49,785 nucleotides of DNA, from contig JBDRRF010000091.1 of assembly GCA_043825875.1 (NCBI GenBank), positions 1 to 49,785 on the forward strand. Reading direction: 5' to 3'. Source of the stretch: Pseudomonadota bacterium. Lineage in GTDB: Bacteria > Desulfobacterota > Desulfobacteria > Desulfobacterales > RPRI01. Positions 28,076 to 49,597 of the stretch are shown piece after piece. Under the pieces are notes generated by a model, which was not told the origin of the DNA, made no database searches, and was given only the letters and a program-made list of their open reading frames with translations. A program made the position numbers and the translations under genes. Each line of letters begins with the position of its first letter. Position 1 is the stretch's first letter.

Positions 28076-28098
28076 GACATACCCTCAATTAGCAATTT

Positions 28099-32358: not shown

Positions 32359-32428
32359 CCTTTATAGTAATATGCTAAGAAAGACATCTACTATCAAATA
32401 AATAACTAAAGAACGCCCCCGATATCCC
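32359..32428 (+). repeat. Dispersed repeat B, diverged copy 2
   Basis: AAGAAAGACATCTA and ATAACTAAAGAA..CCCGATAT shared with 28003-28075. Confidence 0.7.
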
Positions 32429-32486
32429 TTCAAACACCAGCGATAGAATGAACCAATAATGATGACAATCAATAATTGTACTCCAT

Positions 32487-32807: not shown

Positions 32808-32816
32808 GTTTCTCCT

Positions 32817-32930
32817 GAACAACGTTTATGTGAGGAGGGGCGGTTTAGAAGCTGAGATATTGAATATACAGAACCAGCTTATTACTCCAACCGCTATTTG
32901 GCAACCCTCCGATCGACCTTGTGGTTAGCT
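32817..32930 (-). other. attC-like recombination site (somewhat degenerate)
   Basis: Minus strand AGCTAAC ... GGAGGG ... CCCTCC ... GTTGTTC between co-oriented small ORFs. Confidence 0.6.
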
Positions 32931-32943
32931 TTTTTACGTTATA

Positions 32944-33180
32944 TTACTTTGATTCAAGAAGGCTAATGATTTTATCAATTTTTTCACTAATTGTTTTGTC
33001 TGTGAGTGAAGCCAAATAAAGCGCCAAATAAAAGCCTACTACAGGGATTATACTCAATATGCCATAAAGAAATGGTCTCCTTCCTTTGCGTTTTGATAGG
33101 AAGATATTAAAAATGATAATGGGTAAGGTCATTAAAATTAAAGGTATAAACGCTGCGAATCCTGCTGTTTCTTGTTCCAT
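32944..33180 (-). CDS. Small two-TM hypothetical protein
   Basis: 78-aa ORF with AGGAG RBS. Confidence 0.75.
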   Translation of the reverse strand: MEQETAGFAAFIPLILMTLPIIIFNIFLSKRKGRRPFLYGILSIIPVVGFYLALYLASLTDKTISEKIDKIISLLESK

Positions 33181-33216
33181 CTCATTCTCCTATTTTTTTA
33201 AATAATTTTTTGAAAA

Positions 33217-33813
33217 TTATTTGTTCAACTTTAATAGAATTGCATCCAATTTGTCTTCTGTTGGTATGTCTGGCAGTACTTTCTTTTTTATATCAAGCAC
33301 AACAGTTCCGGCAATAAAATCATGTAATGCTCTCTTTTTTTGGTTGAATAAAAGAACAATTAATTCACTCCAAATCCAAATTTGACTTGCTGTGTATATT
33401 GGATTATAAGCTTGGGGCATATTTTCGTGTAAAAAAACTGCCTGCTTAAACCATGAAAGATTATCATATGAAGGATCTGATATATTAAAAAGAGTATATG
33501 CTTGCATAAAAACGATAATTATTCCAAAAGATAAATCGACAATATTTCTAAGGAATGCTTCTTTGTAATGGATTGTCTCTCCATCAACCTTTGTTATTTT
33601 AATCCCCATTATTAACTTCCCAAATGTTCCACCATAATTTGCATTCATATAGATATGATATGCGAAGAATAAAAGCGTGTGAGGGATTATAACAATCAAA
33701 TGAATGGTTTTAGAAAATGATCCAACCCAAAGGATGAAAATTGAAATTGGCATTAAAATTATAAAATCTAATATCACAGAAGATAATCTTTTCCAAAAAC
33801 CTGCATATTGCAT
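33217..33813 (-). CDS. RDD family membrane protein
   Basis: YAGFWKRL..ILD, TFGK..GIKI, KRALHDFIAGTVV motifs. Confidence 0.9.
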   Translation of the reverse strand: MQYAGFWKRLSSVILDFIILMPISIFILWVGSFSKTIHLIVIIPHTLLFFAYHIYMNANYGGTFGKLIMGIKITKVDGETIHYKEAFLRNIVDLSFGIIIVFMQAYTLFNISDPSYDNLSWFKQAVFLHENMPQAYNPIYTASQIWIWSELIVLLFNQKKRALHDFIAGTVVLDIKKKVLPDIPTEDKLDAILLKLNK

Positions 33814-33831
33814 ATAAGTAGTCCTGATTTT

Positions 33832-33890
33832 TAAAAGCGATCTAATCAGCCGCGAAGCCTTTTACGTGGGCTGATTTAGCTTTGCTATGT
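33832..33890 (-). other. Degenerate attC-like site with AGC/GCT in place of AAC/GTT
   Basis: Minus strand ACATAGC-aaagCTAAATCAGCC...GGCTGATTAG-atc-GCTTTTA; spacing nearly equals the attC at 34421-34505. Confidence 0.5.
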
Positions 33891-33891
33891 T

Positions 33892-34395
33892 TTATTGGGT
33901 ATTATTCATTTGAGATGCTATTTTATCAAGCTCTATCATTTTGGGACGGTGATAGAGCATCGCAGCGGCGGAAATACCTGCCAATATATAAAGAGTTGGG
34001 AAATCTTTACTAAGAAGGAATAGAACGAAACCTACTATCCCGATACTTTCTGAAATAGCAATTGAAACAATTACGGCAGTTCCATATTTGACAATTGAAG
34101 GGTGAGAATTGGTCTTAGCAGCACGTTTGAAATATTTTGCTTCAATTTTTTCAGATTGTGGTTTCATTAAATGGTTTCGGAAATAATAACTGAAAATCAA
34201 AATGAAACCACAAACACTATAAAGAATAATTTTCAAAACATCTAAATGAAAATCAGCGCCAAGTATAGATTTCAAGGTTGGTTCTATCATATGGCAAATT
34301 TTAACATAAAGATATAATGAAAAGAGCATAGCTCCCCAGATAATCCAAATTCCACGGATTCCTTTTTTGAAGAGATCCTGTTTATCTGTATTCAA
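33892..34395 (-). CDS. Cassette-borne four-TM hypothetical protein
   Basis: 167-aa ORF with TTG start, between attC-like sites. Confidence 0.75.
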   Translation of the reverse strand: MNTDKQDLFKKGIRGIWIIWGAMLFSLYLYVKICHMIEPTLKSILGADFHLDVLKIILYSVCGFILIFSYYFRNHLMKPQSEKIEAKYFKRAAKTNSHPSIVKYGTAVIVSIAISESIGIVGFVLFLLSKDFPTLYILAGISAAAMLYHRPKMIELDKIASQMNNTQ

Positions 34396-34420
34396 TTTTA
34401 CTTTCCTTTTTTTGAGCTAA

Positions 34421-34505
34421 ACCCAACACTCAAAATCAGCCGCCGAAGACGAAAGAAAGATACGCTCGCGTCGTTAATTCGTCGGCTGCATTTTGCTGGT
34501 TATGC
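34421..34505 (-). other. attC recombination site
   Basis: Minus strand GCATAAC-cagCAAAATGCAGCCG...CGGCTGATTTTG-agt-GTTGGGT, with an unpaired extra base in the L boxes. Confidence 0.8.
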
Positions 34506-34512
34506 TGTTTTG

Positions 34513-34899
34513 CTAATAATCAGAATGTCTACCTCTTTTTATACAATCGGGGTCTTCTTTAAAGCCTTTTTCTCGTGCATCATCTATCGCATTATCAGTA
34601 ATAGCGAATGCTACAGCAAATATGACTACAGTTGTTGCATCTATAACCACTGTAATTGGAGTTCCCAAAACTCTGGTAGAATAATCCTTGAACCTATCAA
34701 ATGAATCTTTGTCTACATAAAACGCATGCTCATTATCATCTCGTATATATTTTGCACCTCTACTTTTTAAATTATCTTCTGTTATTTCAGTAAATTTGAT
34801 TTTTACATATCCATTTGGGTCTGTCCTATCCCATAAGTATGTGGTGGCACAAGAGTTGAGTACAAAAAATAAAATGGTGATAAGTATAATATTTTTCAT
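34513..34899 (-). CDS. Cassette-borne putative lipoprotein
   Basis: MKNIILITILFFVLNSC lipobox. Confidence 0.75.
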   Translation of the reverse strand: MKNIILITILFFVLNSCATTYLWDRTDPNGYVKIKFTEITEDNLKSRGAKYIRDDNEHAFYVDKDSFDRFKDYSTRVLGTPITVVIDATTVVIFAVAFAITDNAIDDAREKGFKEDPDCIKRGRHSDY

Positions 34900-35108
34900 A
34901 GATATATTTGAATAAAAAGTTATTCATAAGTTCTGTTGATCTTGTAATTTAGTATGATCAACGGAAAAATTGAAAATTATTATTGTAAAATGTAAAAATA
35001 ACTTGGACAAACATAGTTAAAGTTTTGTTACTTTATCTTAGTAGTACATATAATTCATTGATAGAATTTTTGTGAAAATATGTTTTTATCTTTCCGTTTT
35101 AAAAACAC

Positions 35109-35148
35109 AAAAGCCCCATGCTTCAATTATATGAAGATTGGGGCTTTT
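35109..35148. terminator. Bidirectional terminator-like hairpin
   Basis: AAAAGCCCCA...TGGGGCTTTT; second copy at 48530-48569. Confidence 0.7.
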
Positions 35149-35175
35149 TTATATCCGGCCATATTCAATCCTTTT

Positions 35176-35339
35176 GAGACCTCTGCAAAACGATCCCTTT
35201 TACACGATTCCTTCGTCAGGTTCAAATTTCGCACGCAGTGAAGCTTTAGCGCTATCCTCGAAATACCCTAAGTATTCCTGCGGTCAATATTTTCGCCTTC
35301 CTTGAACTTGAGCAAAATTGAACATTTTTCAAAAGTCTC
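35176..35339 (-). mobile_element. MITE subfamily B copy with +22-bp insertion
   Basis: GAGAC...GTCTC ends; core homologous to subfamily A; extra GCACGCAGTGAAGCTTTAGCGCT relative to 48596-48737. Confidence 0.85.
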
Positions 35340-35527
35340 ATCCTATAAAATATAAAATGAGATAACGGATTCTTGTTTCCAGAAAATACCAAAACAACAC
35401 AAATTGTATAATGAACAACAATACTAAAGTTTTGCTAACACTTTGAATCAACTAAATCAATAATTTTTTATATTGGTATATAGATATCTTATCTGATAAG
35501 CTCTTTTGAAGGTTGTGGTTTTTCTAT

Positions 35528-35659
35528 CTTATCGGCATTGGAGGTCACAAATTGTGACCTCCAATTTTTAAAATCTTCAATTATCAGCTCAAACATGAAG
35601 TCAGGAGGAAAGCGTTCAATGTTTCTTCTGACCGCCTGTTTTAACACTTTTGTCTCATA
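35528..35659 (-). pseudogene. Internal fragment of an ORF6N-domain gene
   Basis: Encodes [37 protein letters not shown]; homologous to 49368-49497. Confidence 0.85.
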
Positions 35660-35946
35660 AATTGATAGCCCTTCCTCTTTTTGATTTTCAATTGTTCCCA
35701 GAGTAAAACTTCCGATAAAACACCTTGATTGCTGAGTTTTCGAGATAGAGCCTTCAATTTTGGGGTATACAAAAAATTTTCATTACAACCCCCTTTCTCC
35801 CCACTTTTTTAAGGGGAAATTAATTAGATATGTGGTTGTCTTCATAAAAAGTAGATTTCGGTTTGATTGTTATTAAACATCATTATATATACACAGCATA
35901 AGGCATCCCGTAACAAGAAATCTTTATTACACAAAAACTATCTCAT

Positions 35947-36060
35947 AATAAAGATCACGCTCACTGACAAGGCGTGAGGCGATGAAAAAGCGCAGCATAT
36001 AGTTAATATGTGAGCATTTTGAAGAGCCTCACAACGCAGTCAGGGGGGGTTTGATTTATT
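35947..36060 (+). repeat. Palindromic element sharing architecture with the MITEs
   Basis: CTGAC-AAGGCGTGAGGC...GCCTCACAACGCA-GTCAG with central CATAT..ATATG hairpin. Confidence 0.55.
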
Positions 36061-36076
36061 TTGAAAAAGGATATTT

Positions 36077-37306
36077 ATGAAAATACTGCACACATCAGAC
36101 TGGCATATCGGCCGCGCGCTCCACGGCCGCAAGAGGTATAACGAGTACGAAGCCTTTCTGGGCTGGCTGGCAAAACTTATCGAAGATGAAAATATTGATG
36201 TATTGCTTGTAGCAGGAGATGTGTTTGACAACAGCACTCCGAGCAACCGGGCGCAGGAGATATATTACCGTTTTTTAAACCGGCTGGCTGTATCTGCAAA
36301 CCGCCATGTTGTGGTAACAGCCGGAAATCATGATTCGCCTTCATTTTTAAACGCTCCCCGTGAACTATTAAAATTTCTTAACATTCATGTTGTAGGTTGC
36401 GCGTCCGAATTTGCTCAGGATGAATTGATTACAATTGCGGATGCAGATAACGAGCCACAACTTATTATATGCGCCGTTCCTTATCTTCGTGACCGTGATA
36501 TCCGCACCGCTGAGGCCGGAGAAAGTCTGGAGGATAAAGAAAGAAAAATTATTGAAGGTATAAAATCTCATTATCGAAAACTTTATGATGCAGCGGAAGA
36601 AAAACGCGCATTGCTTAACAAACCCGTACCAGTTATCGCTATGGGGCATCTTTATACTGCTGGAGGAAAAACCGTTGACGGGGATGGTGTCAGAGAACTT
36701 TATATCGGGACTCTTTTGCATGTTGGAACGGATGTGTTTCCCGAAAGTATTGACTATCTTGCCCTGGGCCATCTTCACATACCGCAAAAGGTTGGCGGTT
36801 CGGATTTTATCCGTTATTCCGGTTCTCCACTGCCGATTGGTTTCGGGGAAGCTATGCATGAAAAAAGTGTTACTATTGTAGAATTCTCGGACAAACAACC
36901 TGTTGTTAAAACCATACCTGTTCCCTGTTTTCAGGAATTAAAAAGCATTAAAGGTGATTTGCAAACTATTATTCAAAATATCGAAGACCTGAAATCCAAA
37001 AAAAGCTCAGCTTGGCTGGAGATAGTATATGAAGGAGATGAGATTGCAGCAAATTTGCGCGAGCTTATAGATGAAGCTGTTTCCAATAGCTATCTTGAAA
37101 TTCTTCGTATTAAAAACAATATGATTATTGAACGTGTTTTAGAAAGGATAAATGTTAATGAAACGCTTGATGATCTTGATGTTTATGATGTATTCGGCCG
37201 CTGTCTTGACATGCATGTAATTTCCGAAGAACAAAAAAAAGAGCTTCTTGGCACATACCAGGAAGTAATTTCGGCTTTAAATGAAGAAGACATAATGAAG
37301 GAATAG
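36077..37306 (+). CDS. sbcD: Exonuclease SbcCD subunit D
   Basis: HTSDWHIG, AGDVFD, GNHDS, ALGHLH, YSGSP motifs. Confidence 0.95.
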   Translation: MKILHTSDWHIGRALHGRKRYNEYEAFLGWLAKLIEDENIDVLLVAGDVFDNSTPSNRAQEIYYRFLNRLAVSANRHVVVTAGNHDSPSFLNAPRELLKFLNIHVVGCASEFAQDELITIADADNEPQLIICAVPYLRDRDIRTAEAGESLEDKERKIIEGIKSHYRKLYDAAEEKRALLNKPVPVIAMGHLYTAGGKTVDGDGVRELYIGTLLHVGTDVFPESIDYLALGHLHIPQKVGGSDFIRYSGSPLPIGFGEAMHEKSVTIVEFSDKQPVVKTIPVPCFQELKSIKGDLQTIIQNIEDLKSKKSSAWLEIVYEGDEIAANLRELIDEAVSNSYLEILRIKNNMIIERVLERINVNETLDDLDVYDVFGRCLDMHVISEEQKKELLGTYQEVISALNEEDIMKE

Positions 37307-37315
37307 TTGTGCAGC

Positions 37316-40300
37316 ATGAAGATACTTGGCATCAGATTTAAGAATCTTAATTCTCTTACCGGCGAATGGCGAATTGATTTTACACACCCGGATTTTACTT
37401 CAAACGGAATATTTGCAATTACCGGCCCGACAGGCTCAGGAAAAACTACCGTTCTTGATGCCCTCTGCCTCGGGCTTTACGGCAGAACCCCCCGTCTGGA
37501 CAAGGTTACAAAAAGCAGCAATGAAATCATGTCAAGGCAAGCCGGAGAATGTTTTGCAGAAGTTGAATTCGAAACATTAAAAGGCCGCTATCGCTGTCAC
37601 TGGAGCCAGCACCGGGCCAGAAAAAAACCCGGCGGCGAGCTTCAGCAGTCAAAACATGAAATATGCGAAGCTGATTCCGGAAAAGTACTGGAATCAAGGA
37701 TAGCTTTAGTTGGAGAATTTATTGAAAAAGTAACCGGCATGGATTTTGAACGTTTTACACGTTCAATGCTTCTTGCACAAGGCGGATTTGCAATATTTCT
37801 TAAAGCTCCTCCCAACGAAAGGGCTCCCATCCTCGAACAGATTACGGGTACTGAAATCTACAGCAAAATTTCTGTTAAAGTTCACGAAAGACGTTCGGAT
37901 GAGAACAATAAACTGGAAATACTTCAGGCGGAGCTTTCAGGAATCAGGATACTTGGTGAAGACGAAGAAAGAGATTTTAATACCGGTCTTAAAGAAAAAC
38001 AGAATCAGGAAGCTCAGATATCAGCTAGTGTAAAAAAACTGGTAACAGCAGCAAACTGGATCGAGGAAATAAACAAGCTTGAAAAAGATATAGAAGATCT
38101 TGGCGAAAAACGCAAAGATTCGGATAAGCGCAGGCAGGAGTTTGAACCGGAAGCCAAAAAGCTTGATAGATCCCGAAAGGCAGCCGGTTTGGAAGCTGAT
38201 TACCGGGGTGTAACAACTTTGCGTACACAACAGGAAACGGAATTAAAGGAACTTGACGGCGCTGTTTTACTTTTGCCTGAAAAAGATAAAGTTCTTCATG
38301 AAGCATTGTCTCAAAAAATTTCTGCTGAAAACACATTAAATGAATCGCATAAAAAGCAGCAATCGGAAATGCAAATTATCAAACAGGTGCGTGATCTTGA
38401 TACTTTGTTAAGAGAGCAGAAAAAACAGCTTGCAGGACAAGAAAAGAAAGTTGAAGAAACAGAAAAGCAAATATCGGCTTATAAAAAAAGCATAGCAAAA
38501 AGCGATAGCGAAGTAAAAAAGTCGCTCACATCTTTGGAAACAATTAATGATTACCGGATAAAACATGGCGTAGATGCTGCATTAATAACAAACTTAAGTG
38601 CCATTGAAAGGGGCTTTGTTTCATTTCAGGTTGTTGATAAAAAGCATAAAAAAGTATTGAAAGAACTTCATGCAGCAGAAAAGAAAAAAGCCGATTCTTC
38701 TGCCGAATGCAAAAAGCTTGAAGCAGAGCATAATAAATTACACCTTGAATTTGAAAAGCTACGGGATGAACTAAAAAGCATCGGCGATGAAATATCAATT
38801 ATTTTAAAAGGACGCGATATCAGCCAGCTACGGTCAGAACTTGAAAGCTTTAAAGATAGTGAACGCCTGCTGGTTCAAACAGAACAAACAATTGCAAGGA
38901 TTGATAAAACCTTCGAAATGATAGCAAGCTGTGAAAAGCAGATTGTTGAATTAAAAAAAAAGAATTCAAAGCTATCGGATGGAATATATACCGATAGCGA
39001 AAATAAAGAACACCTTGAAAAAGACATTGCCTCACTGGAAACACAGGTGTCTCTTCTTAACCGTATTCATGATCTTGAAGAAGAAAGAAAAAGGCTTGAA
39101 GACGGCAAGCCATGCCCTCTTTGCGGCGCAACCGATCATCCTTATGCAAAGGCCAATATCCCCGCATTAAACGAGACTGAATCCGAACTGAAAAAGGCAA
39201 AGGCAGAATTCAAAAAAATATCCGACAAGCTTACTAAGCTTGAAAATGAGCGGGTCAAAAATACAGCAGCTTTAGAATATTCTGAAAAAGAAATTAAAGA
39301 ACATAAAACATTGCTGGATACTGACAAGAAACAGTGCAAAGCAGAAATAGCTGCATTAAATATTGAAGCCACACCCGGTGAACGGGCAGTAAAAGTACAC
39401 GATCAGCTTTCGGAAGTTAAGTCCAAAATAACCGAAACCTTACGCGTTATTGCAATGGTTGAAGAAAAAATAAAAGAGGAAAAATCAGCGCAAACAAACT
39501 TTGAAAACCTGAGAGAAAAACAGAACAAGGCGGAAAAAGCGTTGCAAGGCTCTATCCATAACATGAAGACAGCCGCTGATGATTATAACCGGCAAAAAAA
39601 TGAATGCGATGCTTTAAAAGAAGAAGTTGAAAAAACCCGGATGTCTGCAGTTAAAGATATTCAAGCTTTCGGGATTAACAATATTACAATAGAAAACCTT
39701 AACCCCACTTTACAAAAACTTACTGACCAAAGAAATAACTGGCAGGCAAAAGATGCTGAAAAATCTACTTTTGAGAAAAAGATCAATGAATTAAAAGCTG
39801 AAATCGAAATAAATAAAGCCATGACAGATAAGCTTGAAGTGGGTTTGGCCGATAAAAATTTTGAGCGCAATAATTTGAAAAAAGAATTCGAGGCGCTGAA
39901 TTTAAAACGCCGTGACCTGTTTGGTGAAAAAAGCCCCGACATTGAAGAAAAACTTCTGGCTGAAGCAATTGATATGGCCGACAAAGCGCTTGAAACAAAG
40001 CGCGAATTATATACACGGATTGAAAAAGAGATCAGTGCTCTTAAAGATAAAATGGATTTTCTTAAAGGAAAAACAGAAAAACGGGCAGCAGAACTTATCC
40101 AGGCGGAACAAAAAATATCTGAGCAATTTAAAACGACAGGATTTGAAGATGAAGGTGATTACCGGTCTTGTTGCCTGAGCAAAGAAGAACGGGAATCGTT
40201 GGCTTTAAGGGAAAAAGCGCTATATGAGGAAAAACTGGAGCTTGATACCCGGTTTAAGGACAAATCAGATGCCCTTTTAAAAGAGAGTAGTAAAAATCTA

Positions 40301-40987
40301 ACTGCTTTATCCAAAGACTTACTTGCGGAAAACATCCGCTGTGCCGAAGATGATCTAAAAGAATTACGGCTTGATATCGGCGGCATTATAAAAAGTCTTG
40401 CCGATAATGAGAAGCAAAAAAAAGATCAGGTTGAGCGTATAAAAAATATAAAAGCACAAAAAACGGAATGCATCCGCTGGGACAACCTGCATCAACTGAT
40501 AGGCTCTGCCGACGGCAAGAAATTCAGAAATTTTGCCCAGGGCCTTACATTTGAAATGATGATATCCCATGCCAACCGGCAGCTTAAAAAGATGACGGAT
40601 CGCTACCTGCTTGTCCGCGATACATTGCAGCCATTGGAACTAAATGTTGTCGATAATTATCAGGCAGGTGAAATCCGTTCTACAAAAAATCTGTCCGGAG
40701 GCGAAAGCTTTATCGTAAGCCTTGCTCTTGCGCTTGGATTGTCTCAAATGGCAAGCAGAAATGTTCGTGTTGATTCTTTATTTCTTGATGAAGGCTTCGG
40801 AACTTTAGATGAGGATTCGCTTGAAACGGCAATAGAAACTCTTGCACAATTACAGCAGGACGGAAAGCTTATTGGCGTTATATCCCATGTACCTGCATTA
40901 AAGGAGAGAATCGGAACTCAAATAGAAGTAATTGCGGAAGCAGGCGGCCGTAGCCGTTTAAGCGGGCCCGGATGTTACAAAATCTGA
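37316..40987 (+). CDS. sbcC: Exonuclease SbcCD subunit C (SMC-like ATPase)
   Basis: GPTGSGKT, coiled coils, CPLC zinc hook, LSGGE, FLDEGFGTLD. Start placed at ATG 37316. Confidence 0.95.
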   Translation: MKILGIRFKNLNSLTGEWRIDFTHPDFTSNGIFAITGPTGSGKTTVLDALCLGLYGRTPRLDKVTKSSNEIMSRQAGECFAEVEFETLKGRYRCHWSQHRARKKPGGELQQSKHEICEADSGKVLESRIALVGEFIEKVTGMDFERFTRSMLLAQGGFAIFLKAPPNERAPILEQITGTEIYSKISVKVHERRSDENNKLEILQAELSGIRILGEDEERDFNTGLKEKQNQEAQISASVKKLVTAANWIEEINKLEKDIEDLGEKRKDSDKRRQEFEPEAKKLDRSRKAAGLEADYRGVTTLRTQQETELKELDGAVLLLPEKDKVLHEALSQKISAENTLNESHKKQQSEMQIIKQVRDLDTLLREQKKQLAGQEKKVEETEKQISAYKKSIAKSDSEVKKSLTSLETINDYRIKHGVDAALITNLSAIERGFVSFQVVDKKHKKVLKELHAAEKKKADSSAECKKLEAEHNKLHLEFEKLRDELKSIGDEISIILKGRDISQLRSELESFKDSERLLVQTEQTIARIDKTFEMIASCEKQIVELKKKNSKLSDGIYTDSENKEHLEKDIASLETQVSLLNRIHDLEEERKRLEDGKPCPLCGATDHPYAKANIPALNETESELKKAKAEFKKISDKLTKLENERVKNTAALEYSEKEIKEHKTLLDTDKKQCKAEIAALNIEATPGERAVKVHDQLSEVKSKITETLRVIAMVEEKIKEEKSAQTNFENLREKQNKAEKALQGSIHNMKTAADDYNRQKNECDALKEEVEKTRMSAVKDIQAFGINNITIENLNPTLQKLTDQRNNWQAKDAEKSTFEKKINELKAEIEINKAMTDKLEVGLADKNFERNNLKKEFEALNLKRRDLFGEKSPDIEEKLLAEAIDMADKALETKRELYTRIEKEISALKDKMDFLKGKTEKRAAELIQAEQKISEQFKTTGFEDEGDYRSCCLSKEERESLALREKALYEEKLELDTRFKDKSDALLKESSKNLTALSKDLLAENIRCAEDDLKELRLDIGGIIKSLADNEKQKKDQVERIKNIKAQKTECIRWDNLHQLIGSADGKKFRNFAQGLTFEMMISHANRQLKKMTDRYLLVRDTLQPLELNVVDNYQAGEIRSTKNLSGGESFIVSLALALGLSQMASRNVRVDSLFLDEGFGTLDEDSLETAIETLAQLQQDGKLIGVISHVPALKERIGTQIEVIAEAGGRSRLSGPGCYKI

Positions 40988-41011
40988 AACCAATAGTTTA
41001 TACTTCTGATC

Positions 41012-41038
41012 TTTACGTTTGGATCTTATAGGTTTTTT
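41012..41038 (+). repeat. 27-bp duplicate of the 3' end of the cysE-like gene
   Basis: TTTACGTTTGGATCTTATAGGTTTTTT versus TTTACGTTTGGATCTCATAGTTTTTTT at 49634-49660 (25/27 identical). Confidence 0.8.
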
Positions 41039-41064
41039 AAAAAGAAATGGGTGACCTCTTTTCT

Positions 41065-41985
41065 TTATATTTTATCCAGATCAGAGGACAATTTTCTAAC
41101 TGTTCTAACAAATTCATTTTGAAATTGAAAATTTTCCGCATTGGTAAAATTGGCAAAGTCCAGAAGGTCAAGGTTTCTTATTAAATTGAGCAGGCCCAGC
41201 AAAGATTCTTCTGCAATTGCCTCCCAGGCCAAAATCCTTTCTTCTTTATTTTTTGAATTTTCCCTGGCCATGGACAAGGCTTTGTATAGGTTTTCATGAT
41301 CTTTCTTAAAACCATGATGCACCATATTGTATAAAAGCAGGAACAAGGCATCAACTCGATTCATCTTCACCAGTGTGGGGCTGTGGAAAAAAGAATGTTG
41401 TTTATCCACACTCACATCTGCCTTGCCAAGCAATACTGTCTTTTCAAACCAGTTAAGGGTATAGGCCAGATAATCCTTGCTTTGCCACTTGTGTTTTTCC
41501 CAGGCATGAGTCCGGATAATCTTGGTCAACTCCATGATGCAGATATCATGCGTGTCATAATCAAAGTTGCCCAAAAATGCTCCGGATTGAAAAATGTCCA
41601 CGCCAGGTCTATGGGCATGTTTTGAAATTTCTGCGCAAAGGATCCGATTTTCTTTTCCTGGTCTTTGGATGATAATTTTATAGGATGGTTTTTCTTTTTT
41701 AATACGCACCAGTTCTTCAATGGAATCCGGTGGGAGAATCGGGTCGGCTATGCAAGGGGGCAAAAAAGCAGCTAAAAGACCGGGGCTTAAGTCCACCCTT
41801 TCCAAAGCAGCTTTGAATACGGGCAGATCGTTTTCATCCAGGGGGGCAACCGGTGTCAGACAACCCTTTTCCAGATGGGGTAAAACCAGCTCCATAAAAG
41901 CTTCAAGGCCAGCTTGCCAATGGGCACTTCTTGGGTCTTTTTTCTCATCAATCCATTGTTTTGCTTTTGACAACATTTGATCCAT
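41065..41985 (-). CDS. Hypothetical protein flanked by a 16-bp direct repeat
   Basis: 306-aa ORF; AATGGGTGACCTCTTT at 41046-41061 and 42164-42179. Confidence 0.8.
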   Translation of the reverse strand: MDQMLSKAKQWIDEKKDPRSAHWQAGLEAFMELVLPHLEKGCLTPVAPLDENDLPVFKAALERVDLSPGLLAAFLPPCIADPILPPDSIEELVRIKKEKPSYKIIIQRPGKENRILCAEISKHAHRPGVDIFQSGAFLGNFDYDTHDICIMELTKIIRTHAWEKHKWQSKDYLAYTLNWFEKTVLLGKADVSVDKQHSFFHSPTLVKMNRVDALFLLLYNMVHHGFKKDHENLYKALSMARENSKNKEERILAWEAIAEESLLGLLNLIRNLDLLDFANFTNAENFQFQNEFVRTVRKLSSDLDKI

Positions 41986-42332
41986 TAATTCACACTCTTT
42001 TTAAATTTTCATACGGTTAAGATCGGAACAGAAAAAAAGTATCTTCCTCATTTTGCCGATAGTATTACCATACTCACCCAATAATACCAAGGGATAATAA
42101 GATATGAGAGAACTGCATCAAAACAAGCTTGGAAACCGAGTCCCCTCTCTTTTCATACCCTTTAATGGGTGACCTCTTTACCGATGTTTTGTGCCTGGCA
42201 AAATAGCAAAGCATGGAGCTCGCTTGACATATAGAGTCTCATGCCTACTTTCAAACTAAAGATCTATAATTGATGGTTAATTCCAGATAATGGATAACAA
42301 ATCAGCTTATTTACCCTTACAGTAAAGGAGGT

Positions 42333-42839
42333 ATGGCAATGAAAATTATATTTAGATCAAAGGCTGTATATCTACTGGTATCATTGGTATTTGTAATGAC
42401 TTTTGCCCTTCAGGCATGTACCGAAAACAATAAACTTGTGGAAGGCCCCAAAACGACAAAGGTAATTTTTGATTTTCGTGATTCAGTCCTGGAGAGCGCG
42501 CTGATCCACATAAAATTGATTCATGATACATATAAGGATAAAAACATTGTGACAGATAAGCCCGAATTCGCGGTTGTTTTTATGGGTGGATCTGTAAATC
42601 TTCTGTCAAAAAGCAGAGACGGGTATTCACCGGAAGATCAAAAAATACTTGAAAAAATAGGTGAAATAATTACGGCAATGTCAAAGGACGGTATACGGTT
42701 GGAGGTTTGCATGTTTGCAGCCAATTTATTTGGTCTTGACCCGGACTCCATATTACCGGAAATCCATCAGATAAAAAACGGTTGGATCTCTTCAATCAGG
42801 TATCAGGAAAAGGGATACGTTCTGGTTCCGGTATTTTAA
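42333..42839 (+). CDS. DsrE-family protein, probable lipoprotein
   Basis: LQAC lipobox; KVIFD, VVFMG, LEVC and YQEKGY motifs; AAGGAGG RBS. Confidence 0.75.
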   Translation: MAMKIIFRSKAVYLLVSLVFVMTFALQACTENNKLVEGPKTTKVIFDFRDSVLESALIHIKLIHDTYKDKNIVTDKPEFAVVFMGGSVNLLSKSRDGYSPEDQKILEKIGEIITAMSKDGIRLEVCMFAANLFGLDPDSILPEIHQIKNGWISSIRYQEKGYVLVPVF

Positions 42840-42939
42840 ATGAGTCTTTAAAATATTTCCCATAGATTATACGCTGGTAACACCAATATTTCCCCTTATT
42901 TGACGCAATTCGGGGGCTTGTTGGGACCGCTATATTCTC

Positions 42940-42977
42940 TTGACAAATTAATTTGTATACGTACAATAAACTGTACA
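42940..42977 (+). promoter_or_regulatory. yefM-yoeB promoter and autoregulatory operator
   Basis: TTGACA (42940) and TACAAT (42962); CGTACA/TGTACA cores 12 bp apart, as in known YefM operators. Confidence 0.7.
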
Positions 42978-42989
42978 GGAGTTACCAAA

Positions 42990-43241
42990 ATGGAAGCAAT
43001 AACCTATACAGCCGTAAGACAAAATCTTGCAAAAACAATGGAAAAAGTATGTAACGACCATTCTCCAATTATTGTGACACGTAAATCCTCAAATTCCGTG
43101 GTTATTATGTCACTTGAAGACTATGAATCGCTTGAAGAAACAGCCTATTTATTGCGATCTCCGAAGAACGCGAAACGTTTGTTGGAGTCAATAGCCCAGC
43201 TTGAAAATGGCAAAGGGCATGAAAAGGACCTTATAGAGTGA
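42990..43241 (+). CDS. yefM: Phd/YefM antitoxin
   Basis: MEAITYTAVRQNLAKTM...SLEETAYLLRSPKNA; ATG 42990 after AGGAG. Confidence 0.93.
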   Translation: MEAITYTAVRQNLAKTMEKVCNDHSPIIVTRKSSNSVVIMSLEDYESLEETAYLLRSPKNAKRLLESIAQLENGKGHEKDLIE

Positions 43242-43492
43242 AGCTTATCTTTTCAGACAATGCATGGGGCGATTATCTCTTCCGGCAAAAATCTGACAAA
43301 AAAATATTACGTCGAATCAATACACTCATAAAAGAAACAAAGCGTAACCCGTTTGAGGGTATTGGTAAACCTGAGCCTTTAAAACATGCTCTTTCCGGTT
43401 ATTGGTCGAGACGAATAACCGATGAGCATAGATTTATATATAAAGTCTCTGAAGATGCCATCGAAATAGCACAACTCAGATACCACTATTGA
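43238..43492 (+). CDS. yoeB: Txe/YoeB toxin
   Basis: GIGKPEPLKH, WSRRITDEHR, C-terminal RYHY; GTGA overlap. Confidence 0.93.
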   Translation: MKLIFSDNAWGDYLFRQKSDKKILRRINTLIKETKRNPFEGIGKPEPLKHALSGYWSRRITDEHRFIYKVSEDAIEIAQLRYHY

Positions 43493-43561
43493 CACATCTC
43501 TTTCAGCCCTGTCTTCTGAAAATAAAATTAACCTTTTAAAAATAAATATTTAGGAGACGTA

Positions 43562-44497
43562 ATGATAAGTAACCAAAACAATTCAAAAAAGTTAAGTTAT
43601 GCCGAATGTATTGATATTTCAAAAAAGGTGCGCTGGGACATTGATAATGATTTGATTAAAGGACGTACTTTTGATGTAACCAAAAAATTTCTTCCGGATG
43701 GATTATCAAAAGTCGACCAGTTTGAATTTCTCACTGACCGGGAAAAGATGTTGTTAAGTCAGGTACAGGGGTGGACCTATGCAAACATGTTCGGGTTTGT
43801 GGAGAGATTCATTGTTGCCAAGGTATTGGAACTGACTGCAATGCATTGGCTCGGTGACCAGGTGGCGCTGGAATCCATGGTTCGTTTTTGTGATGAAGAG
43901 CTAAAACATCAGGAGTTGTTCCGGCGCATAGATCAAATGATGGCAGATGTGATGCCTGACGGCTATCGATTCCTGTTTGATCCCAACGAGGTGGCAAAAG
44001 CTGTTTTATCCAAATCCACATGGGCGGTCATGGCACTGATACTGGAAATTGAGCTTTTTACACGGGAACACTATAAGCAAAGCATCGAACCCGATAACGA
44101 ACTCTCCGATCTTTATAAAGATGTATTTTTATTTCACTGGAAGGAAGAGACCACCCATGCAATGATTGATGAACTTGAATGGCCGCTCGTTGATGCAAAA
44201 TTAACACCTGAAAAACGGGACAATGCTGTAACTGATGTCATCGACCTGGTGACAGATGTGGACGGCATTTTAAAGGCTCAAAGTGAATCTGACACAAAAT
44301 ATTTTTTAAAAATAATTGACCGGCAATTGAGTGAGGATCAGGTTATGCAAATCGGAAAAGGTGTCCATCAAGCCTATCAATGGCAGTATATTTTTTCCGG
44401 CGTACAACATCCACGATTCGTTTCAATGCTCAGCTCGCTGACAACAGAAGAACAGCGCACGCGACTCGGTGATGCGTTGAGCTTGCTCGGGAAATAA
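43562..44497 (+). CDS. Ferritin-like diiron protein (AurF-like fold)
   Basis: Two ExxH motifs (EELKH, EETTH), each with an upstream Glu. Confidence 0.65.
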   Translation: MISNQNNSKKLSYAECIDISKKVRWDIDNDLIKGRTFDVTKKFLPDGLSKVDQFEFLTDREKMLLSQVQGWTYANMFGFVERFIVAKVLELTAMHWLGDQVALESMVRFCDEELKHQELFRRIDQMMADVMPDGYRFLFDPNEVAKAVLSKSTWAVMALILEIELFTREHYKQSIEPDNELSDLYKDVFLFHWKEETTHAMIDELEWPLVDAKLTPEKRDNAVTDVIDLVTDVDGILKAQSESDTKYFLKIIDRQLSEDQVMQIGKGVHQAYQWQYIFSGVQHPRFVSMLSSLTTEEQRTRLGDALSLLGK

Positions 44498-44589
44498 TAA
44501 TTTTTCATTTGAAGAGCGTAACTATAGTGAATGGGGGTTTTCACTAGTTTTAATATTCAAGATTCAAGACGCGGCCCCATTGTTTTCCC

Positions 44590-44660
44590 CCTCCATAGTA
44601 GTTTGCCCAGAAAGACATCTAATAGAAACTATATAACTAAAGGGCGTTACCGATATCCCC
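44590..44660 (+). repeat. Dispersed repeat B, copy 3
   Basis: Near-identical to 28003-28075 over about 50 bp. Confidence 0.85.
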
Positions 44661-44700
44661 CAATTATGACAAATGTGGTTGAGATATTTAGATCCTGAAA

Positions 44701-44982
44701 CTATGCAAATTGAAGCTTAAGCTTTTTACCAAGGGCTACAGCGACATTTTCCAAAGTTAGAAGTGTTATTGAAGAATTTTCAGGATCCAGCAGCCTATCA
44801 ACTGAAGATCGACTTGTTTTCATCATTTTAGCCAAAGCTGTTTTTGAAATGTTACGTAATTCCATTTCCTGCTTAATCTGATAAGCAAGTATGCGTTTTA
44901 GAGCCGCTGCTTCGGCTTCTGCCAGTAAGCCTTCCTCTTGAAGGAAATCATCAAAACTACTTCCAATATGTTTGTCTTTCAT
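44701..44982 (-). CDS. XRE-type HTH antitoxin
   Basis: HIGSSFDDFL..EG and TSRSSVDRLLDP..SITL motifs. Confidence 0.85.
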   Translation of the reverse strand: MKDKHIGSSFDDFLQEEGLLAEAEAAALKRILAYQIKQEMELRNISKTALAKMMKTSRSSVDRLLDPENSSITLLTLENVAVALGKKLKLQFA

Positions 44983-44984
44983 CC

Positions 44985-45341
44985 TTAATCCTCCTGATAT
45001 TCTTTCAACCGGGAAAGAGCTGTTTCTAATTCATTCTTAGGAATTTTCTGCGTTTTTTAATAAACCCGTGTAATAGGATCATCATATTCCCGTCAACAGT
45101 GAATAAAACTCTGGCAATTCCACCCGGAATCTTGGACCTTACCTCCCACCTCCCATAGGAACGGTTTTAATTTTTCAACCAAAGGCATGCCAAGGGGCCA
45201 TCCTAACTGAACAGTTATAATATCTTCTCCTAATACTTTCTTTTGTATCGGGGACAATGATTTTAGCTATTTCCTTACGGGTTCCGTGCCTGCACTGGTC
45301 TTGTAAAAATGAACTTTTAATTTTAGATCATCTAAATCTAT
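44985..45341 (-). pseudogene. RelE/ParE (Gp49-like) toxin pseudogene
   Basis: Fragments FYKTSAGTEPVRK*L, GWPLGMPLV, WEVRS, RVLF, LLHGFIKK with an in-frame TAG and frameshifts. Confidence 0.85.
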
Positions 45342-45917
45342 GATTTGCGGTGTACCAAAATTGGTGCGTTTGTCAATTATTATTTTCGTTGAGTATAATT
45401 GCAAGCATTTTGACAACCTTTTCATAATCTTGTTTGCTTGCCTGAAAATTCACATTGATAACTTTATCAACAGTAGGTGGTAATTTTACTTTTTTATAGC
45501 AGTATCACTTGCAGATTCAAGGCGCTTTGAGTTGTCATTGTAAGGGGGAAAGTGTTTCTCTCCTCCCTTTGCAAAAGGGAGGCCGGGAGGGCTTTATAAA
45601 AAGCTTTTTCAATCAGTTTATTAAATCTTCATATAGGGGGAATTGAGGGCATCCTACAAATGCTTCTTTGCATGTGAATATTAACAGCAGCAAATTGATT
45701 AAAAAATATTTTCATTTTCTATAAAGCAAATAGGATGATATCCTTGATAATATTCATATTTAGCTTATCAACTATAAATATAAAGGGCGTTATATATTAA
45801 AAGAAAAGAAGTCCCCAATACTACCCATAGGTATTACTTCCAAATATATGGACTAAACTGTTACCAAGCCGTAAGTTCATATTTCAAGGTTTGACCCCGT
45901 TTTTCTCAACCCGCTTG

Positions 45918-46283
45918 TTAAAGCCTTTTAGCTTTTGCTTCTCGATAAAAGTATATCTTGAATAGTTGCAGTAACAAACCAATCCCTAAAAAACTTATTC
46001 CTAAATAGAAAATATCATAAGTGTCTTCTTTGATGTTTCCAAATATAATTTCGACTCCAGAAGAGATAAATCCTACAGATCCAGCAAGTAATAAAAGAAA
46101 GATATATAATTTTAGGGCAATTAAAATAGTATTTTCCTCGGGTAAAATCACAAGAGCAGTGAGGAACGGCAGAGAAATTAATAGCAAAAAGCACAAATTT
46201 TTTATAAAAAATTGCCCAACGAGCAATGCAACAAAAATTATAATACCAACATTTCTTTTATCATTTAAGAATAATTGTTTCAT
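45918..46283 (-). CDS. Cassette E: hydrophobic membrane protein
   Basis: Cassette starts GTTAAAG (46300); the stop codon overlaps the matching inverse core CTTTAAC (45917-45923). Confidence 0.75.
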   Translation of the reverse strand: MKQLFLNDKRNVGIIIFVALLVGQFFIKNLCFLLLISLPFLTALVILPEENTILIALKLYIFLLLLAGSVGFISSGVEIIFGNIKEDTYDIFYLGISFLGIGLLLQLFKIYFYREAKAKRL

Positions 46284-46293
46284 TATATTTCAA

Positions 46294-46398
46294 CTTTAAC
46301 GCCCCGCCTGAGCAGCGGCCCAATATTGGACCGGACTTCTACAGACTTTTACGTTAAACTGCGATTTTCCTGCCGTCTGCTCCAGGCGGATGTTATGT
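46294..46398 (-). other. attC site
   Basis: Minus strand ACATAAC-atCCGCCTGGAGCAG...CTGCTCAGGCGG-ggc-GTTAAAG, with an extrahelical G. Confidence 0.88.
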
Positions 46399-46423
46399 AT
46401 TGAATTCTATAACGAATTTAATT

Positions 46424-46783
46424 TCATGTTCTTAGTTCAGGATGCCTATCGTAAAAGCCTTCAACATTTTCAATGCGGCCATTACAATTCGGACAAGTAT
46501 TTTCAGAGACCTCTTTGGCGTAAAATGATGCTCGACAGTCTAAGCAGATTACAAAATCGTCATCGTAGCTTTTTGGGATGTTCCTTCTAATTAGTCCGTA
46601 TAGGAGAATAAGCACACCAAATATAGATAGTACTACTCCAGCACCTTTTGATATTGGGAAGCCATATCGGCTATCCCATTGATGAATATAATAATGCACC
46701 CCTAACCAAATTGTGAGACACCCAAGACCAATAAAGAATAAGCGTCTAAGAAATGGAGTTGTATTTGTTTTTTGCTTTTTCAT
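46424..46783 (-). CDS. Cassette D: two-TM protein with C-terminal zinc ribbon
   Basis: CLDC...CPNC; bounded by GTTATGT / ACATAAC. Confidence 0.8.
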   Translation of the reverse strand: MKKQKTNTTPFLRRLFFIGLGCLTIWLGVHYYIHQWDSRYGFPISKGAGVVLSIFGVLILLYGLIRRNIPKSYDDDFVICLDCRASFYAKEVSENTCPNCNGRIENVEGFYDRHPELRT

Positions 46784-46787
46784 TTAT

Positions 46788-46922
46788 ACATAACGTTGCC
46801 GCTAAGGGCGCCGGGAAATATCCCATCATAGGCATGTCTTAAAACCTAAAAACTCAGCACAATGACAAAAGTTCTAAAAATCCGCGGCCTTTCCCGGTCC
46901 CGCTTCAGCGGCCTTGTTGGGC
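46788..46922 (-). other. attC site
   Basis: Minus strand GCCCAAC-aagGCCGCTGAAGCGGGACCGGG...CCCGGCGCCCTTAGCGGC-aac-GTTATGT. Confidence 0.88.
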
Positions 46923-46925
46923 AAC

Positions 46926-47255
46926 TCAATTGCTTATTATAATCCTTGTTTCCGATTTACTATTTTTAAATCGTGTGTTTACGAATCCCGAACAAATACA
47001 GAAGTTGTGGAAAACATCAGATTCATCAAGTTCTCTGGAAAACTTGTATCCAGAAACCACGAATTCAATCTGTGCTCCAAGTGCAACTTGGACTTGGCTC
47101 ATCCCTGCCTCAGAATCGTCAATGTATGACATGCAATCAATCCACGCATCCCAGTTACTGCCATAGAAATCGGGAAAACCCATGACCTTTGCAAAGGCAG
47201 CATGAAATGTTTCTTCATCTTTGAAGATATCAAATGGGAGATGGATAGTTTTCAT
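46926..47255 (-). CDS. Cassette C: barstar-family protein
   Basis: GFPDFYGSNWDAWIDCM signature; start is ATG 47255 downstream of core GTTGGGC (the track start lies inside the attC). Confidence 0.85.
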   Translation of the reverse strand: MKTIHLPFDIFKDEETFHAAFAKVMGFPDFYGSNWDAWIDCMSYIDDSEAGMSQVQVALGAQIEFVVSGYKFSRELDESDVFHNFCICSGFVNTRFKNSKSETRIIISN

Positions 47256-47263
47256 AATTCTTT

Positions 47264-47406
47264 GCCCAACGTTTGAGTTAAGGGGCCACCGACCGCAGGG
47301 AGGGAACAAGGTACCACTAAATTATGCAAAGAGTAACACTGTTCCAAAGTTGTCACAGATTTTGAAAAAGCCGCCCCTTGTGGTCCGCTGCAATGATTGG
47401 TTAACT
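47264..47406 (-). other. attC site
   Basis: Minus strand AGTTAAC-caatcaTTGCAGCGGACCAC...GTGGCCCCTTAActcaaac-GTTGGGC. Confidence 0.85.
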
Positions 47407-47415
47407 ATCAATAAT

Positions 47416-47724
47416 TTATTTTAACGTTTCCTGAATATATAAGGTAATTGCTGTAATTGTGAAAGATATGATACCTGTTAGAGCATATTTCCACCATGCT
47501 TTTATCCATTTTGAGCGCTTCCCATTGTCCCAAATAGGCCAAGGATACAACCGGGCGTGGTAAAACAAATTCATTGTTTTTTTAAATTTAGGATCACTAT
47601 AAAATTCTTTTTCATTTCCCAAAAGCCTAAACATTGGATATAAAAATATTCTTAAAAAGCAGTATCCAGTAACCATATTGGAAATTATGTAAATAATTAT
47701 ATTTAGAGCTTTTAAATATTCCAT
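47416..47724 (-). CDS. Cassette B: two-TM hypothetical protein
   Basis: Bounded by 11-bp complementary ends GTTAACTATCA / TGATAGTTAAC. Confidence 0.75.
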   Translation of the reverse strand: MEYLKALNIIIYIISNMVTGYCFLRIFLYPMFRLLGNEKEFYSDPKFKKTMNLFYHARLYPWPIWDNGKRSKWIKAWWKYALTGIISFTITAITLYIQETLK

Positions 47725-47740
47725 AAATACTCGGACTGAT

Positions 47741-47802
47741 AGTTAACGCCCGGCATAAGGCGCGGCGGCTTTTTGCCGTCGATCTTAATGCCGTTGTTCG
47801 CT
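47741..47802 (-). other. attC site (62 bp)
   Basis: Minus strand AGCGAAC-aaCGGCATTAAG-atcgaCGGCaaaaaGCCGccgcgc-CTTATGCCG-ggc-GTTAACT. Confidence 0.88.
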
Positions 47803-48245
47803 TAAATAGCGATTTTGTAAAATCCCTGTTCTTTAAAAAAGAAGCTTTTATCAAGAATCTGTTGTAATGATATTTCTTCCATTACTTTAGGCGATTCCTG
47901 AAAATCTCCATCCCAAATTCCATATATCTCAATTTCAGATTCTTCGGTTGACCTGAGAAGCTTCACTAGCGCATCACGGTTGTATGTATCTGTGGCTTCC
48001 CACTCTGGATCGTCGTCATCATCGTCATCAAAAATTGGCCATTGGCCATTTTGTAAAGTGACGTGTGGAAAATCACAACCGCATCCAGATGTCGCGCCAA
48101 CATATTGAACTTCAGATTTACTAAAATGAGCCTTGATTGGTTGATCTCTCTCTGAAAGAGATTCCACACATAAATCTGGTGCTTCCTTATCCCATTTTTT
48201 TCTTGGAATGGATTTCTCTGTTCCGACGTAAAGTACAAAACACAT
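47802..48245 (-). CDS. Cassette A: acidic hypothetical protein with a CGC motif
   Basis: 147-aa ORF bounded by GTTCGCT (48262) and AGCGAAC. Confidence 0.8.
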   Translation of the reverse strand: MCFVLYVGTEKSIPRKKWDKEAPDLCVESLSERDQPIKAHFSKSEVQYVGATSGCGCDFPHVTLQNGQWPIFDDDDDDDPEWEATDTYNRDALVKLLRSTEESEIEIYGIWDGDFQESPKVMEEISLQQILDKSFFFKEQGFYKIAI

Positions 48246-48255
48246 ATTTTCACCA

Positions 48256-48285
48256 AGCGAACAAGTAATTATACAGTTTTGGATA
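48256..48285 (-). other. Putative attI-like site heading the array
   Basis: Minus strand AAAACTGTATAATTACTT-GTTCGCT. The core matches the first cassette's inverse core and no attC stem lies upstream. Confidence 0.6.
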
Positions 48286-48527
48286 GCTTCACCATTGTAA
48301 GAAACTCTGGAAAGGTTAAGAACAAATTATTCTAAAACCAAAAGTTAGCTACACAAAACTTGTAATTTATTTATTTTATTATATTCAATAATTATATAGC
48401 TTATTAACAGATTTTTTATGGTAATATTTTTCTATCTTTATGTATATCATTCTATTTTTCGGTTCATATAGAAGGATGATTCTTTTACATTGAATCCTCA
48501 ATATCCCGCATAGCCTGCCCTAAAAAA

Positions 48528-48873
48528 ACAAAAGCCCCATGCTTCAATTATCTGAAGATTGGGGCTTTTTATATCCGGTCATGTTCAATCCTTTTGAGAC
48601 CTTTGCAAAACGCCCCTTTTTACCCGATTCCATAGTCAGGCTCAAATTTCAATCCTCGAAATACCCGATGTATTCCTGTGGTTGAAATTTCCGCCTTCCT
48701 TGAACTTGAGCAAAATTGAACATTTTTCTAAAGTTTCATCCTATAAATAATAAAATGAGATAATGGATTCTTGTTTCCAGAAAATGCCAAAACGGTATAA
48801 ATTGTATAATGAACAACAATACAAAATTTTGGCTAACACTTTGGATAAATTAAATCAATAATTATTTATATTG
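48528..48873 (+). repeat. Duplicated array-leader region, copy 2
   Basis: Colinear with 35107-35475. Confidence 0.92.
48596..48737 (-). mobile_element. 142-bp MITE subfamily B copy
   Basis: Same length and core (AAATTTCAATCCTCGAAATAC..GTATTCCTGTGGTTGAAATTT) as subfamily A reversed; GAGAC-type end. Confidence 0.85.
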
Positions 48874-48917
48874 AAAATTATTCAAAAACTATTCTTTCAA
48901 GTACTGCAACATTGCCG

Positions 48918-49597
48918 CTACTTACCGTATTTCCGTTTCTTTTCTTTAACTGTAAAACCTATTTTCTTCTTCGGCTTGCTTTCAACAACCAACATATGAT
49001 CCAACGTCTCAAATACAACCTGGAAACGATCTTCGGTAATTTTTTTGAGTTCTTCAAGCTCTTTTCTGAGATCAGCATTCTCAAGAAGCATCCGACTTAA
49101 TTTTGCAAATGTCCTCATGATCTGAGCCACTTTCAAAACGTTTCAGTTTGGTCAAGGTCAAGGCGGGTGAAAATTTTAACCGCAGGAATACACGGAGTAT
49201 TTCGAGGATTAAAATTTTCACCCAACGCAGAGATCGGCCAAAATGGGGCGTTTTGAAACTGGCTCATCTGTATATTTACATAAATCGGCACGTTTGCTGT
49301 TTAAAACGCTGGAAAGCATGGCAACACCTTGTTCAGTAAAGGCCATGGGTTTATATCTCAAGCCCATCTTGTCGGCATTGGAGGTCACAAATTGTGACCT
49401 CCAATTTTCAAATTCTTCTATTGACAGCTCAAACATGAAGTCAGGAGGGAAGCGGTCAATGTTTCTTCTGACCGCCTTTTTAGGACTTTTGTCTCTACTT
49501 CGTAGAGCTCTGCTAAGTCTCTATCAAGCATAACCTTTGAATCCCTTATAAAGTATATTTTGCTGACAATCGTTTCTGCTGGTAATAATTCAGTCAT
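48918..49597 (-). pseudogene. ORF6N-domain DNA-binding protein, disrupted
   Basis: [36 protein letters not shown] and KKIGF. 1-nt deletion near 49478, 1-nt insertion near 49287, and a MITE insertion. Confidence 0.9.
49124..49265 (+). mobile_element. 142-bp MITE subfamily A inserted in the ORF6N gene
   Basis: TSD ATCT (49120-49123, 49266-49269); removal restores NIQIMRTF. Confidence 0.95.

Follow-up and report, generated by a model that had tools for sequence, protein, structure and literature searches.

How does an array of gene cassettes come to stand behind an attachment site of its own where no integron integrase gene (intI) lies beside it? The question is raised by contig JBDRRF010000091.1 of a Pseudomonadota bacterium (GenBank assembly GCA_043825875.1), whose entire 49,785 nucleotides constitute the window analyzed here (contig C91 of genome G000). 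Two cassette arrays lie on its minus strand, array A (45918..48245) and array B (32487..34899), which define loci A and B; each is preceded by a copy of a leader repeat and a piece of an ORF6N-domain gene. The initial annotation read these loci as copies of one duplicable, intI-less platform loaded in trans, each copy acquiring its own cassettes. This holds in part: the platform is duplicable, intact integron integrases (IntI) are encoded elsewhere in the genome, and cassettes differ also at orthologous loci of a congener, but the unit is not ORF6N plus leader, and A and B are not siblings. The explanation that we favor, with better than even confidence, is that both loci are attC clusters that lack integron integrases (CALINs) and that possess a platform: they would have kept the attI and promoter DNA of an integron of the long-IntI type and lost its intI, the leader would be a separate repeat, and the platform would have spread by duplication and recombination and been loaded in trans. 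Comparisons involve the congener G008 and the relatives G011, G013, G014, G016 and G038, with contigs numbered C.

Array A contains five cassette open reading frames (ORFs; 47802-48245, 47416-47724, 46926-47255, which is barstar-like, 46424-46783 and 45918-46283) and attC sites at 47741-47802, 47264-47406, 46788-46922 and 46294-46398, the fifth attC being truncated. These four score 47-62 (two are training seeds) in a scanner of our own, used instead of IntegronFinder, that combines a position weight matrix with pairing and misses weak sites; on the reversed genome none reaches 45. The R' and R'' sequences of array A are exactly complementary at 5/5 junctions, from G|TTCGCT (48262) on. Array B is decaying. 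Its ORFs lie at 34513-34899, 33892-34395, 33217-33813 (RDD), 32944-33180 and 32487-32822; one attC is strong (34421-34505, score 50, a training seed), one weak (32817-32930, score 31), and the rest are degenerate or truncated. Array A clearly fits the CALIN definition (a minimum of two attC sites with no intI nearby) and B is borderline; at neither locus does intI adjoin attI, as it does in a complete integron. The cassettes are unrelated between the loci, in agreement with the initial annotation, and are accompanied by real attC sites. None of the 10 cassette proteins has a close copy elsewhere in G000 or among 32 loci searched in relatives, although a paralog at 30% exists for one of them, and NCBIfam and PADLOC returned nothing above cut-off or convincing for them.

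No tyrosine recombinase is encoded in the window, as had been annotated: none of the genome's nine PF00589 matches lies on this contig, and tblastn with six IntI proteins gives a best E value of 0.12 against it. The search for intI elsewhere in G000 was positive, revealing four intact integron integrases, all above the TIGR02249 cut-off and none on C91. One of them, on C79 (locus L028:2180-3697), has 506 aa. This protein bears an N-terminal extension of ~190 aa, and its relatives occur, by record titles, in Desulfobacterota, Nitrospirota and others.

The DNA between leader and first cassette identifies the platform. These stretches, initially described as unique spacers of 170-250 bp, are both homologous to what separates intI from attI in integrons of the long-IntI type. 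Spacer A (type-A attI region, 48256..48521, minus strand) shares 92% and 89% identity with two further loci in G000 and 70-73% with the DNA directly upstream of intI in G008 and G016, while spacer B (type-B attI region, 34910..35100, minus strand) matches the sequence upstream of the intact 506-aa intI on C79 with 69% identity over 185 nt. The alignments span from about the intI start to the crossover; over the final 40 nt, spacer A is 81-83% identical to the intI-linked attI of G008 and spacer B 83% identical to the C79 attI. At A, homology is joined by a G|TT crossover at 48262 (R' GTTCGCT) and by an exact 7-nt complement between R' and the R'' of the first cassette, as also in the type-A copies on C97 and C109. 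At B the homology is present and the core is mutated (T at 34916), reading TTTATTC where the first cassette's R'' predicts GTTATGC (5/7 positions agree). Of the attI-like sites annotated at both loci, that of A is intact and that of B has a mutated core. Types A and B are only 66% alike over 180 nt (shuffled mean 57, maximum 62), which indicates that the arrays carry two different attI versions and are not sibling copies. A candidate cassette promoter (Pc) facing array A matches at 10/12 positions (48407-48378); two promoter-like sites were found, against 4.1 expected by chance.

Such regions are numerous in this genome. A profile of the attI region, blind to attI types other than those modeled, gives 27 matches in G000, of which 19 are full length and only one lies beside intI; an earlier profile had no match on the reversed genome. 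Counting a shortened copy on C51, 19 attI regions are intI-less, and 13 of these lack a leader. The window holds a third, partial copy (22553-22647, plus strand) comprising the promoter half without the attI end, which faces a toxin-antitoxin-like pair with DUF5615; the partner gene we take to be of the DUF433 type.

Comparison of orthologous loci, paired by their upstream flanks (A with G008:C76, C97 with G008:C87 and C109 with G008:C57), reveals how these platforms behave. One and the same junction of leader and type-A region is common to A, C97, C109, G008:C76 and G008:C87; evidently, the fused unit of type A was copied without intI. Between A and G008:C76 the attI region is 97% identical and the downstream DNA 54%, and between C97 and G008:C87 the values are 88% and 55%, unrelated pairs giving 48-54% downstream. 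In both pairs the first cassettes are unrelated, which capture in trans, in our judgment fairly likely, would fit. C109 and G008:C57 have different attI types behind an orthologous leader. At locus A, attI is of type A in G000 and G008, of a short type B in G011 and absent from G013, with intI in 0/4 of these genomes. Locus B of G008 retains the leader and ~20 nt of spacer, with neither ORF6N nor array. Two apparent exchanges were not counted: a joint skipping cassette A1 in sequencing run X1 is best explained by the C109 paralog, whose attC is 90% alike, and the 271 nt that the C97 array has in common with a G008 array linked to intI coincide in part with a repeat.

In G000, leaderless modules directly follow queC and a tRNA gene without a trace of intI; they are absent from those places in 9/9 and 4/4 relative loci examined. 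Behind queC two attI modules lie in tandem (G000:C18:33240-34900), and ahead of the second stands a duplicated, diverged 3' end of queC. This duplicate begins at an attC crossover, which suggests that attI modules can arrive on integrase-moved pieces.

The arrangement in which leader and intI meet offers a route to the window layout. On G038:C25 an intact intI converges on the leader module, with ~50 nt between its stop codon and the module's end, and attI and cassettes follow this intI. The same geometry is seen on G000:C79 and the orthologous G008:C43, where the first 70 nt (5') of the leader are found downstream of a long intI. Deletion of intI there would give the layout of loci A and B. 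Such deletions do occur: next to leaderless modules, C83 retains an intI stub of 69 nt from the 5' end and C10 a 3' piece in decay. On G038:C26 a leader module is followed within ~100 nt by a G|TT site that has no intI, and the R' of this site complements the R'' of the next attC. The initial annotation had named leader copies without arrays, or relatives with intI in the spacer, as evidence that would overturn it. What was found goes halfway: half of the 12 leaders in G000 lack an attI region, and leader DNA stands beside intact intI on G000:C79 and G038:C25, which points to an origin by intI deletion. One and the same unit of gene end, intI 5' stub and attI occurs on G008:C134 (L116, 5150-5440 and 11400-11700) and G000:C83 (68850-69510); it is intI-less and was copied with its flank, twice in G008 and once in G000, and its gene end is presumably SRAP-like.

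The proposed history has four steps. An integron would first have adjoined a leader copy, its intI convergent on the leader's hairpin in the geometry of G038:C25. Deletion of intI, which we infer, would then have joined leader and attI region on three or more occasions, from which types A, B and C arose. The fused unit would have spread and been exchanged among leader-bearing loci through duplication and homologous recombination, and for this step the same junction at three loci, the mosaic alleles and the differing attI types behind orthologous leaders provide direct comparative evidence. Finally, an IntI from elsewhere, most likely the 506-aa enzyme of C79, may still load an intact attI such as A, which we hold to be somewhat more probable than its opposite. 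Copy B, with its mutated core, is probably frozen.

Several points weigh against this explanation. The type-A alleles are mosaic: their copies do undergo homologous recombination, and this could by itself swap whole arrays without an integrase. The resident C79 attI is 58.5% identical to attI A over the last 40 nt and 61% over 180 nt, the latter within the shuffled range given above; attI A being this distant, its cognate IntI is perhaps absent from the genome. Taken together, mosaicism and distance make capture in trans something that we infer. Only 1.4 kb of the G008:C76 array is present before its contig ends, and its first attC is truncated; all genomes compared are draft assemblies. Most of the attI sites counted came from the profile's own training set, and 11 of the 31 sites tested lack an exact 6-nt R'' match, some crossover offsets being misplaced. 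As for the route, the intI of G038:C25 is of the short type, none of the 80 loci with long-IntI relatives has a leader, and a full leader-intI-attI locus of type A or B was not encountered. Nor did the remaining intI genes examined, those of the genus and of G038, show a leader match in the DNA covered.

The most serious competitor holds that the arrays are dead relics, built in complete integrons whose intI was later deleted, with homologous recombination and deletion producing the differences among copies. The intI stubs on C83 and C10 speak for it, as do the mutated attI and decayed attC of B, the remnant of ~20 nt of spacer without array at the B ortholog, the mosaic alleles and the low likeness between attI A and the resident intI-linked attI. 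It is nevertheless unlikely, since five type-A copies share an intI-less junction and each has its own first cassette at G|TT, array A retains all five of its exact R'/R'' pairs, and the modules after queC and the tRNA gene lack any intI trace and are missing there from the relatives.

A second alternative, close to what was initially proposed, makes ORF6N plus leader a single platform, duplicated as such, that takes the place of intI and in which ORF6N would be the regulator. PF10543 (ORF6N) matches at 49305-49564 and 35528-35659 confirm the annotated gene or remnant at both loci, but neither copy is whole. The A copy (48918..49597, minus strand) is a pseudogene with a frameshift near 49477 and an inserted miniature inverted-repeat transposable element (MITE; 49123-49266), its G011 ortholog being intact; the B copy (35526..35656, minus strand) is a 131-nt fragment, 91.6% identical to A. 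Broken at both loci and absent from the B ortholog, ORF6N cannot be a working regulator here. The fragment is fused to the stub of an unrelated gene (35655..35790, minus strand), 86% identical to C18:25588-25721, which we take to be DUF559-like. In favor of a joint platform, ORF6N frequently co-occurs with the leader: three of its six places in G000 are within 1.3 kb upstream of a leader, and it lies directly downstream of the leader 3' module at G013:C69, G013:C90, G016:C189 and G038:C38. However, the side relative to the leader thus varies, the other three places have no leader within 10 kb on the contig, 13/19 intI-less attI regions lack a leader, 6/12 leaders lack attI, and none of 80 intI loci of long-IntI relatives carries ORF6N. 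No report linking ORF6N to integrons was found in the literature searched, which largely leaves subscription journals outside its coverage. This alternative is very improbable; the platform proper is the attI and promoter region, and ORF6N is evidently a bystander or passenger of the same accessory loci. Least credible of all, and refuted for loci A and B, is cassette insertion at secondary, attG-type sites with incidental attI likeness, a described route to small CALINs (10.1101/2022.09.11.507474; this and the other sources cited are represented by part of their text), because the homology to intI-upstream DNA spans 170-230 nt, well beyond a mere core.

The leader is evidently a repeat in its own right, dispersed and found at the head of accessory genes in two families. 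The homologous non-coding leader with MITE and terminator hairpin annotated at both loci is real: 48528-48873 and 35107-35475 are 84% identical over 369 nt (E 1e-115). Leader A, on the minus strand, has a 5' part delimited by the leader profile (48746..48866) that begins at a TTGATT hexamer and in which no minus-strand promoter was called, a MITE (48595..48730) inserted just upstream of the ribosome-binding site, and a 3' module (48522..48602) with a Shine-Dalgarno (SD)-like AAGGA, an ATG and a short ORF running into a T-tailed hairpin that is terminator-like on both strands. Leader B (35101..35470, minus strand) comprises a 5' part (35346-35470), a MITE (about 35177-35340) and a 3' module (35101-35182). 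Two MITE kinds sit directly upstream of the SD in many copies.

The 3' module occurs 12 times in G000. Leader copies heading an attI region, by the attI profile (0 in the reversed control), number 6/12 in G000, 3/18 in G008, 1/5 in G011 and 1/5 in G013, against 0/5 in G016, 0/1 in G014 and 0/13 in G038. By BLAST among 40 relatives, leaders occur in 5/16 congeners and one other family; a covariance model finds them in 7/140 relatives (one by a single weak match), and the exact pattern is present in 4/400 genomes of the order, all congeners. A metagenome pattern scan returned 10 loci, of which the matchable ones are congener loci already known, and no independent support is taken from it. Rfam has no match for the leader in the window, and a MITE-free copy scores at best 21 bits against a gathering score of 65. 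Resolution of the leader tree is poor (5/23 inner branches strong). The genes behind leaders are presumably toxin-antitoxin-like pairs, a methyltransferase, ORF6N and cassettes, to judge from their translations, with what we take to be cas6 behind the G014 copy. At G000:C49:65330-65423 a leader is followed by a 70-nt stub of type-A spacer and a gene resembling tetratricopeptide repeat (TPR) proteins, with no attI.

Structurally, the leader has the anatomy of a putative leader-peptide transcription attenuator: SD, start codon and a short ORF overlapping an intrinsic terminator. ATG, GTG or TTG occupies the start position in 58/59 copies (55 parsed, three by eye; the model was trained on such copies). 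The hairpin is paired in 85% of cells over 39 copies, with one clearly covarying pair and most pairs invariant, while the ORF varies in length and frame from 5 to over 20 codons. Several G038 copies have a TTGACT-17-TATATT-like promoter upstream. Among the sequencing runs listed, none of RNA contains this stretch. A broader reading, which we put forward as speculative, is that the leader is a previously undescribed, attenuated expression module (promoter, ribosome site and short ORF over a terminator) heading accessory and defense loci in Desulfobacterota, and that it has repeatedly acquired attI regions of several types in two families; the integron system of a single genome would thereby become a network of capture pads, each under its own regulation and lacking an integrase, among which recombination exchanges attI-array units and which a few IntI load, without exception, in trans.

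Other identities of the leader were considered and rejected. Its hairpin arm resembles an intI 3' end over ~12 nt, yet at none of the 80 loci does intI run on into a leader. TIRtron/TIRYT elements consist of terminal inverted repeats (TIRs) flanking a Y1 transposase gene (PMC3733652); no leader match lies beside the Y1 transposase genes of G000, and a TIR-like end appears after extension in only some leader copies. Inspected by eye, a dif-like or sigma-54 motif is not conserved. TIRYT-like element ends do lie at gene seams of the window (44590-44662, 27995-28076 and 32349-32430), and a Y1 transposase at 27085-27696 exceeds the cut-off for transposases associated with repetitive extragenic palindromic (REP) sequences.

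Beyond array A lie a YefM-YoeB toxin-antitoxin pair (42900-43492, plus strand) and, at 44701-45300 (minus strand), a helix-turn-helix gene behind a broken gene, presumably RelE-like. Downstream of array B, defense-like genes occupy 25545-29260 and 29577-30926, namely a split KAP NTPase (PDC-S20-like), an AAA_14/DUF4143 ATPase (PDC-S01-like) and an M48 peptidase. The contig stops 1.5 kb upstream of attI A, where orthologous DNA runs on into a housekeeping-type gene. The MITE found in the leaders occupies about 250 places of at least 100 nt in the genome; it is present at 1-141 of the window and at many contig ends, where the draft assembly breaks. The long arrays on C25, C75 and C102 start at contig edges, so no head can be assigned to them.

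CALINs outnumber complete integrons, and attI-bearing CALINs that can be compared at orthologous loci bear on whether such arrays are relics, donors or active acceptors. Tools look for attI in classes 1-3 only. With three defined attI types and four resident integrases, the question of an acceptor in trans is open to direct test. Should the leader prove to be an attenuator, the cassettes behind these pads would be expressed conditionally as well, a situation for which no description in integrons was found in the literature searched. Nor was a description found there of multiplied, intI-less CALIN platforms bearing attI, supplementary CALIN tables being, like subscription journals, largely outside its coverage. 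What is new is the ortholog comparison of attI-bearing CALINs and the leader repeat.

Putative mobile promoters (Nijveen et al. 2012, PMC3575422), similar non-coding upstream DNA found before unrelated genes, sometimes across families, are the closest parallel to the leader, which differs from them by conserving a ribosome site, a start codon and a terminator hairpin and by recurring at integron platforms. The sedentary chromosomal integrons of long-IntI type (G000:C79, G008:C37/C38) share with loci A and B the homologous intergenic DNA, with an inverted L box, a 5-bp spacer and a G|TT crossover; at the window loci intI is missing and the leader occupies its place. Delta-attI-type cassettes of class 1/2 integrons (PMC12901181) likewise involve extra attI copies that stay recombinogenic, although there attI pieces flank cassettes within one mobile integron, whereas here whole attI regions head separate chromosomal arrays. 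In single attC sites lacking integron integrases (SALINs) and attG insertion (10.1101/2022.09.11.507474), IntI also acts away from its own gene, but attG is unrelated to attI. Xanthomonas CALINs at conserved loci (10.1101/2025.06.18.660453) similarly comprise several loci per genome, no attI being reported in the available part of that source. CALIN cassettes can be mobilized by the integrases of other integrons, and attI is unknown for most integrons (PMC4889954, PMC9668308, 10.1101/2025.06.18.660453); intI loss has been discussed as well (PMC4889954). CALINs as described in 2016 (PMC4889954) match the present loci in having at least two attC sites, no nearby intI and an IntI elsewhere in the genome. 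As far as that source is represented here, they are presented as donors of cassettes, split arrays are assumed to lack Pc, and the search for attI could cover classes 1-3 only; at the loci described here the attI and promoter region is kept and multiplied about 20-fold, and the comparative data suggest the role of an acceptor.

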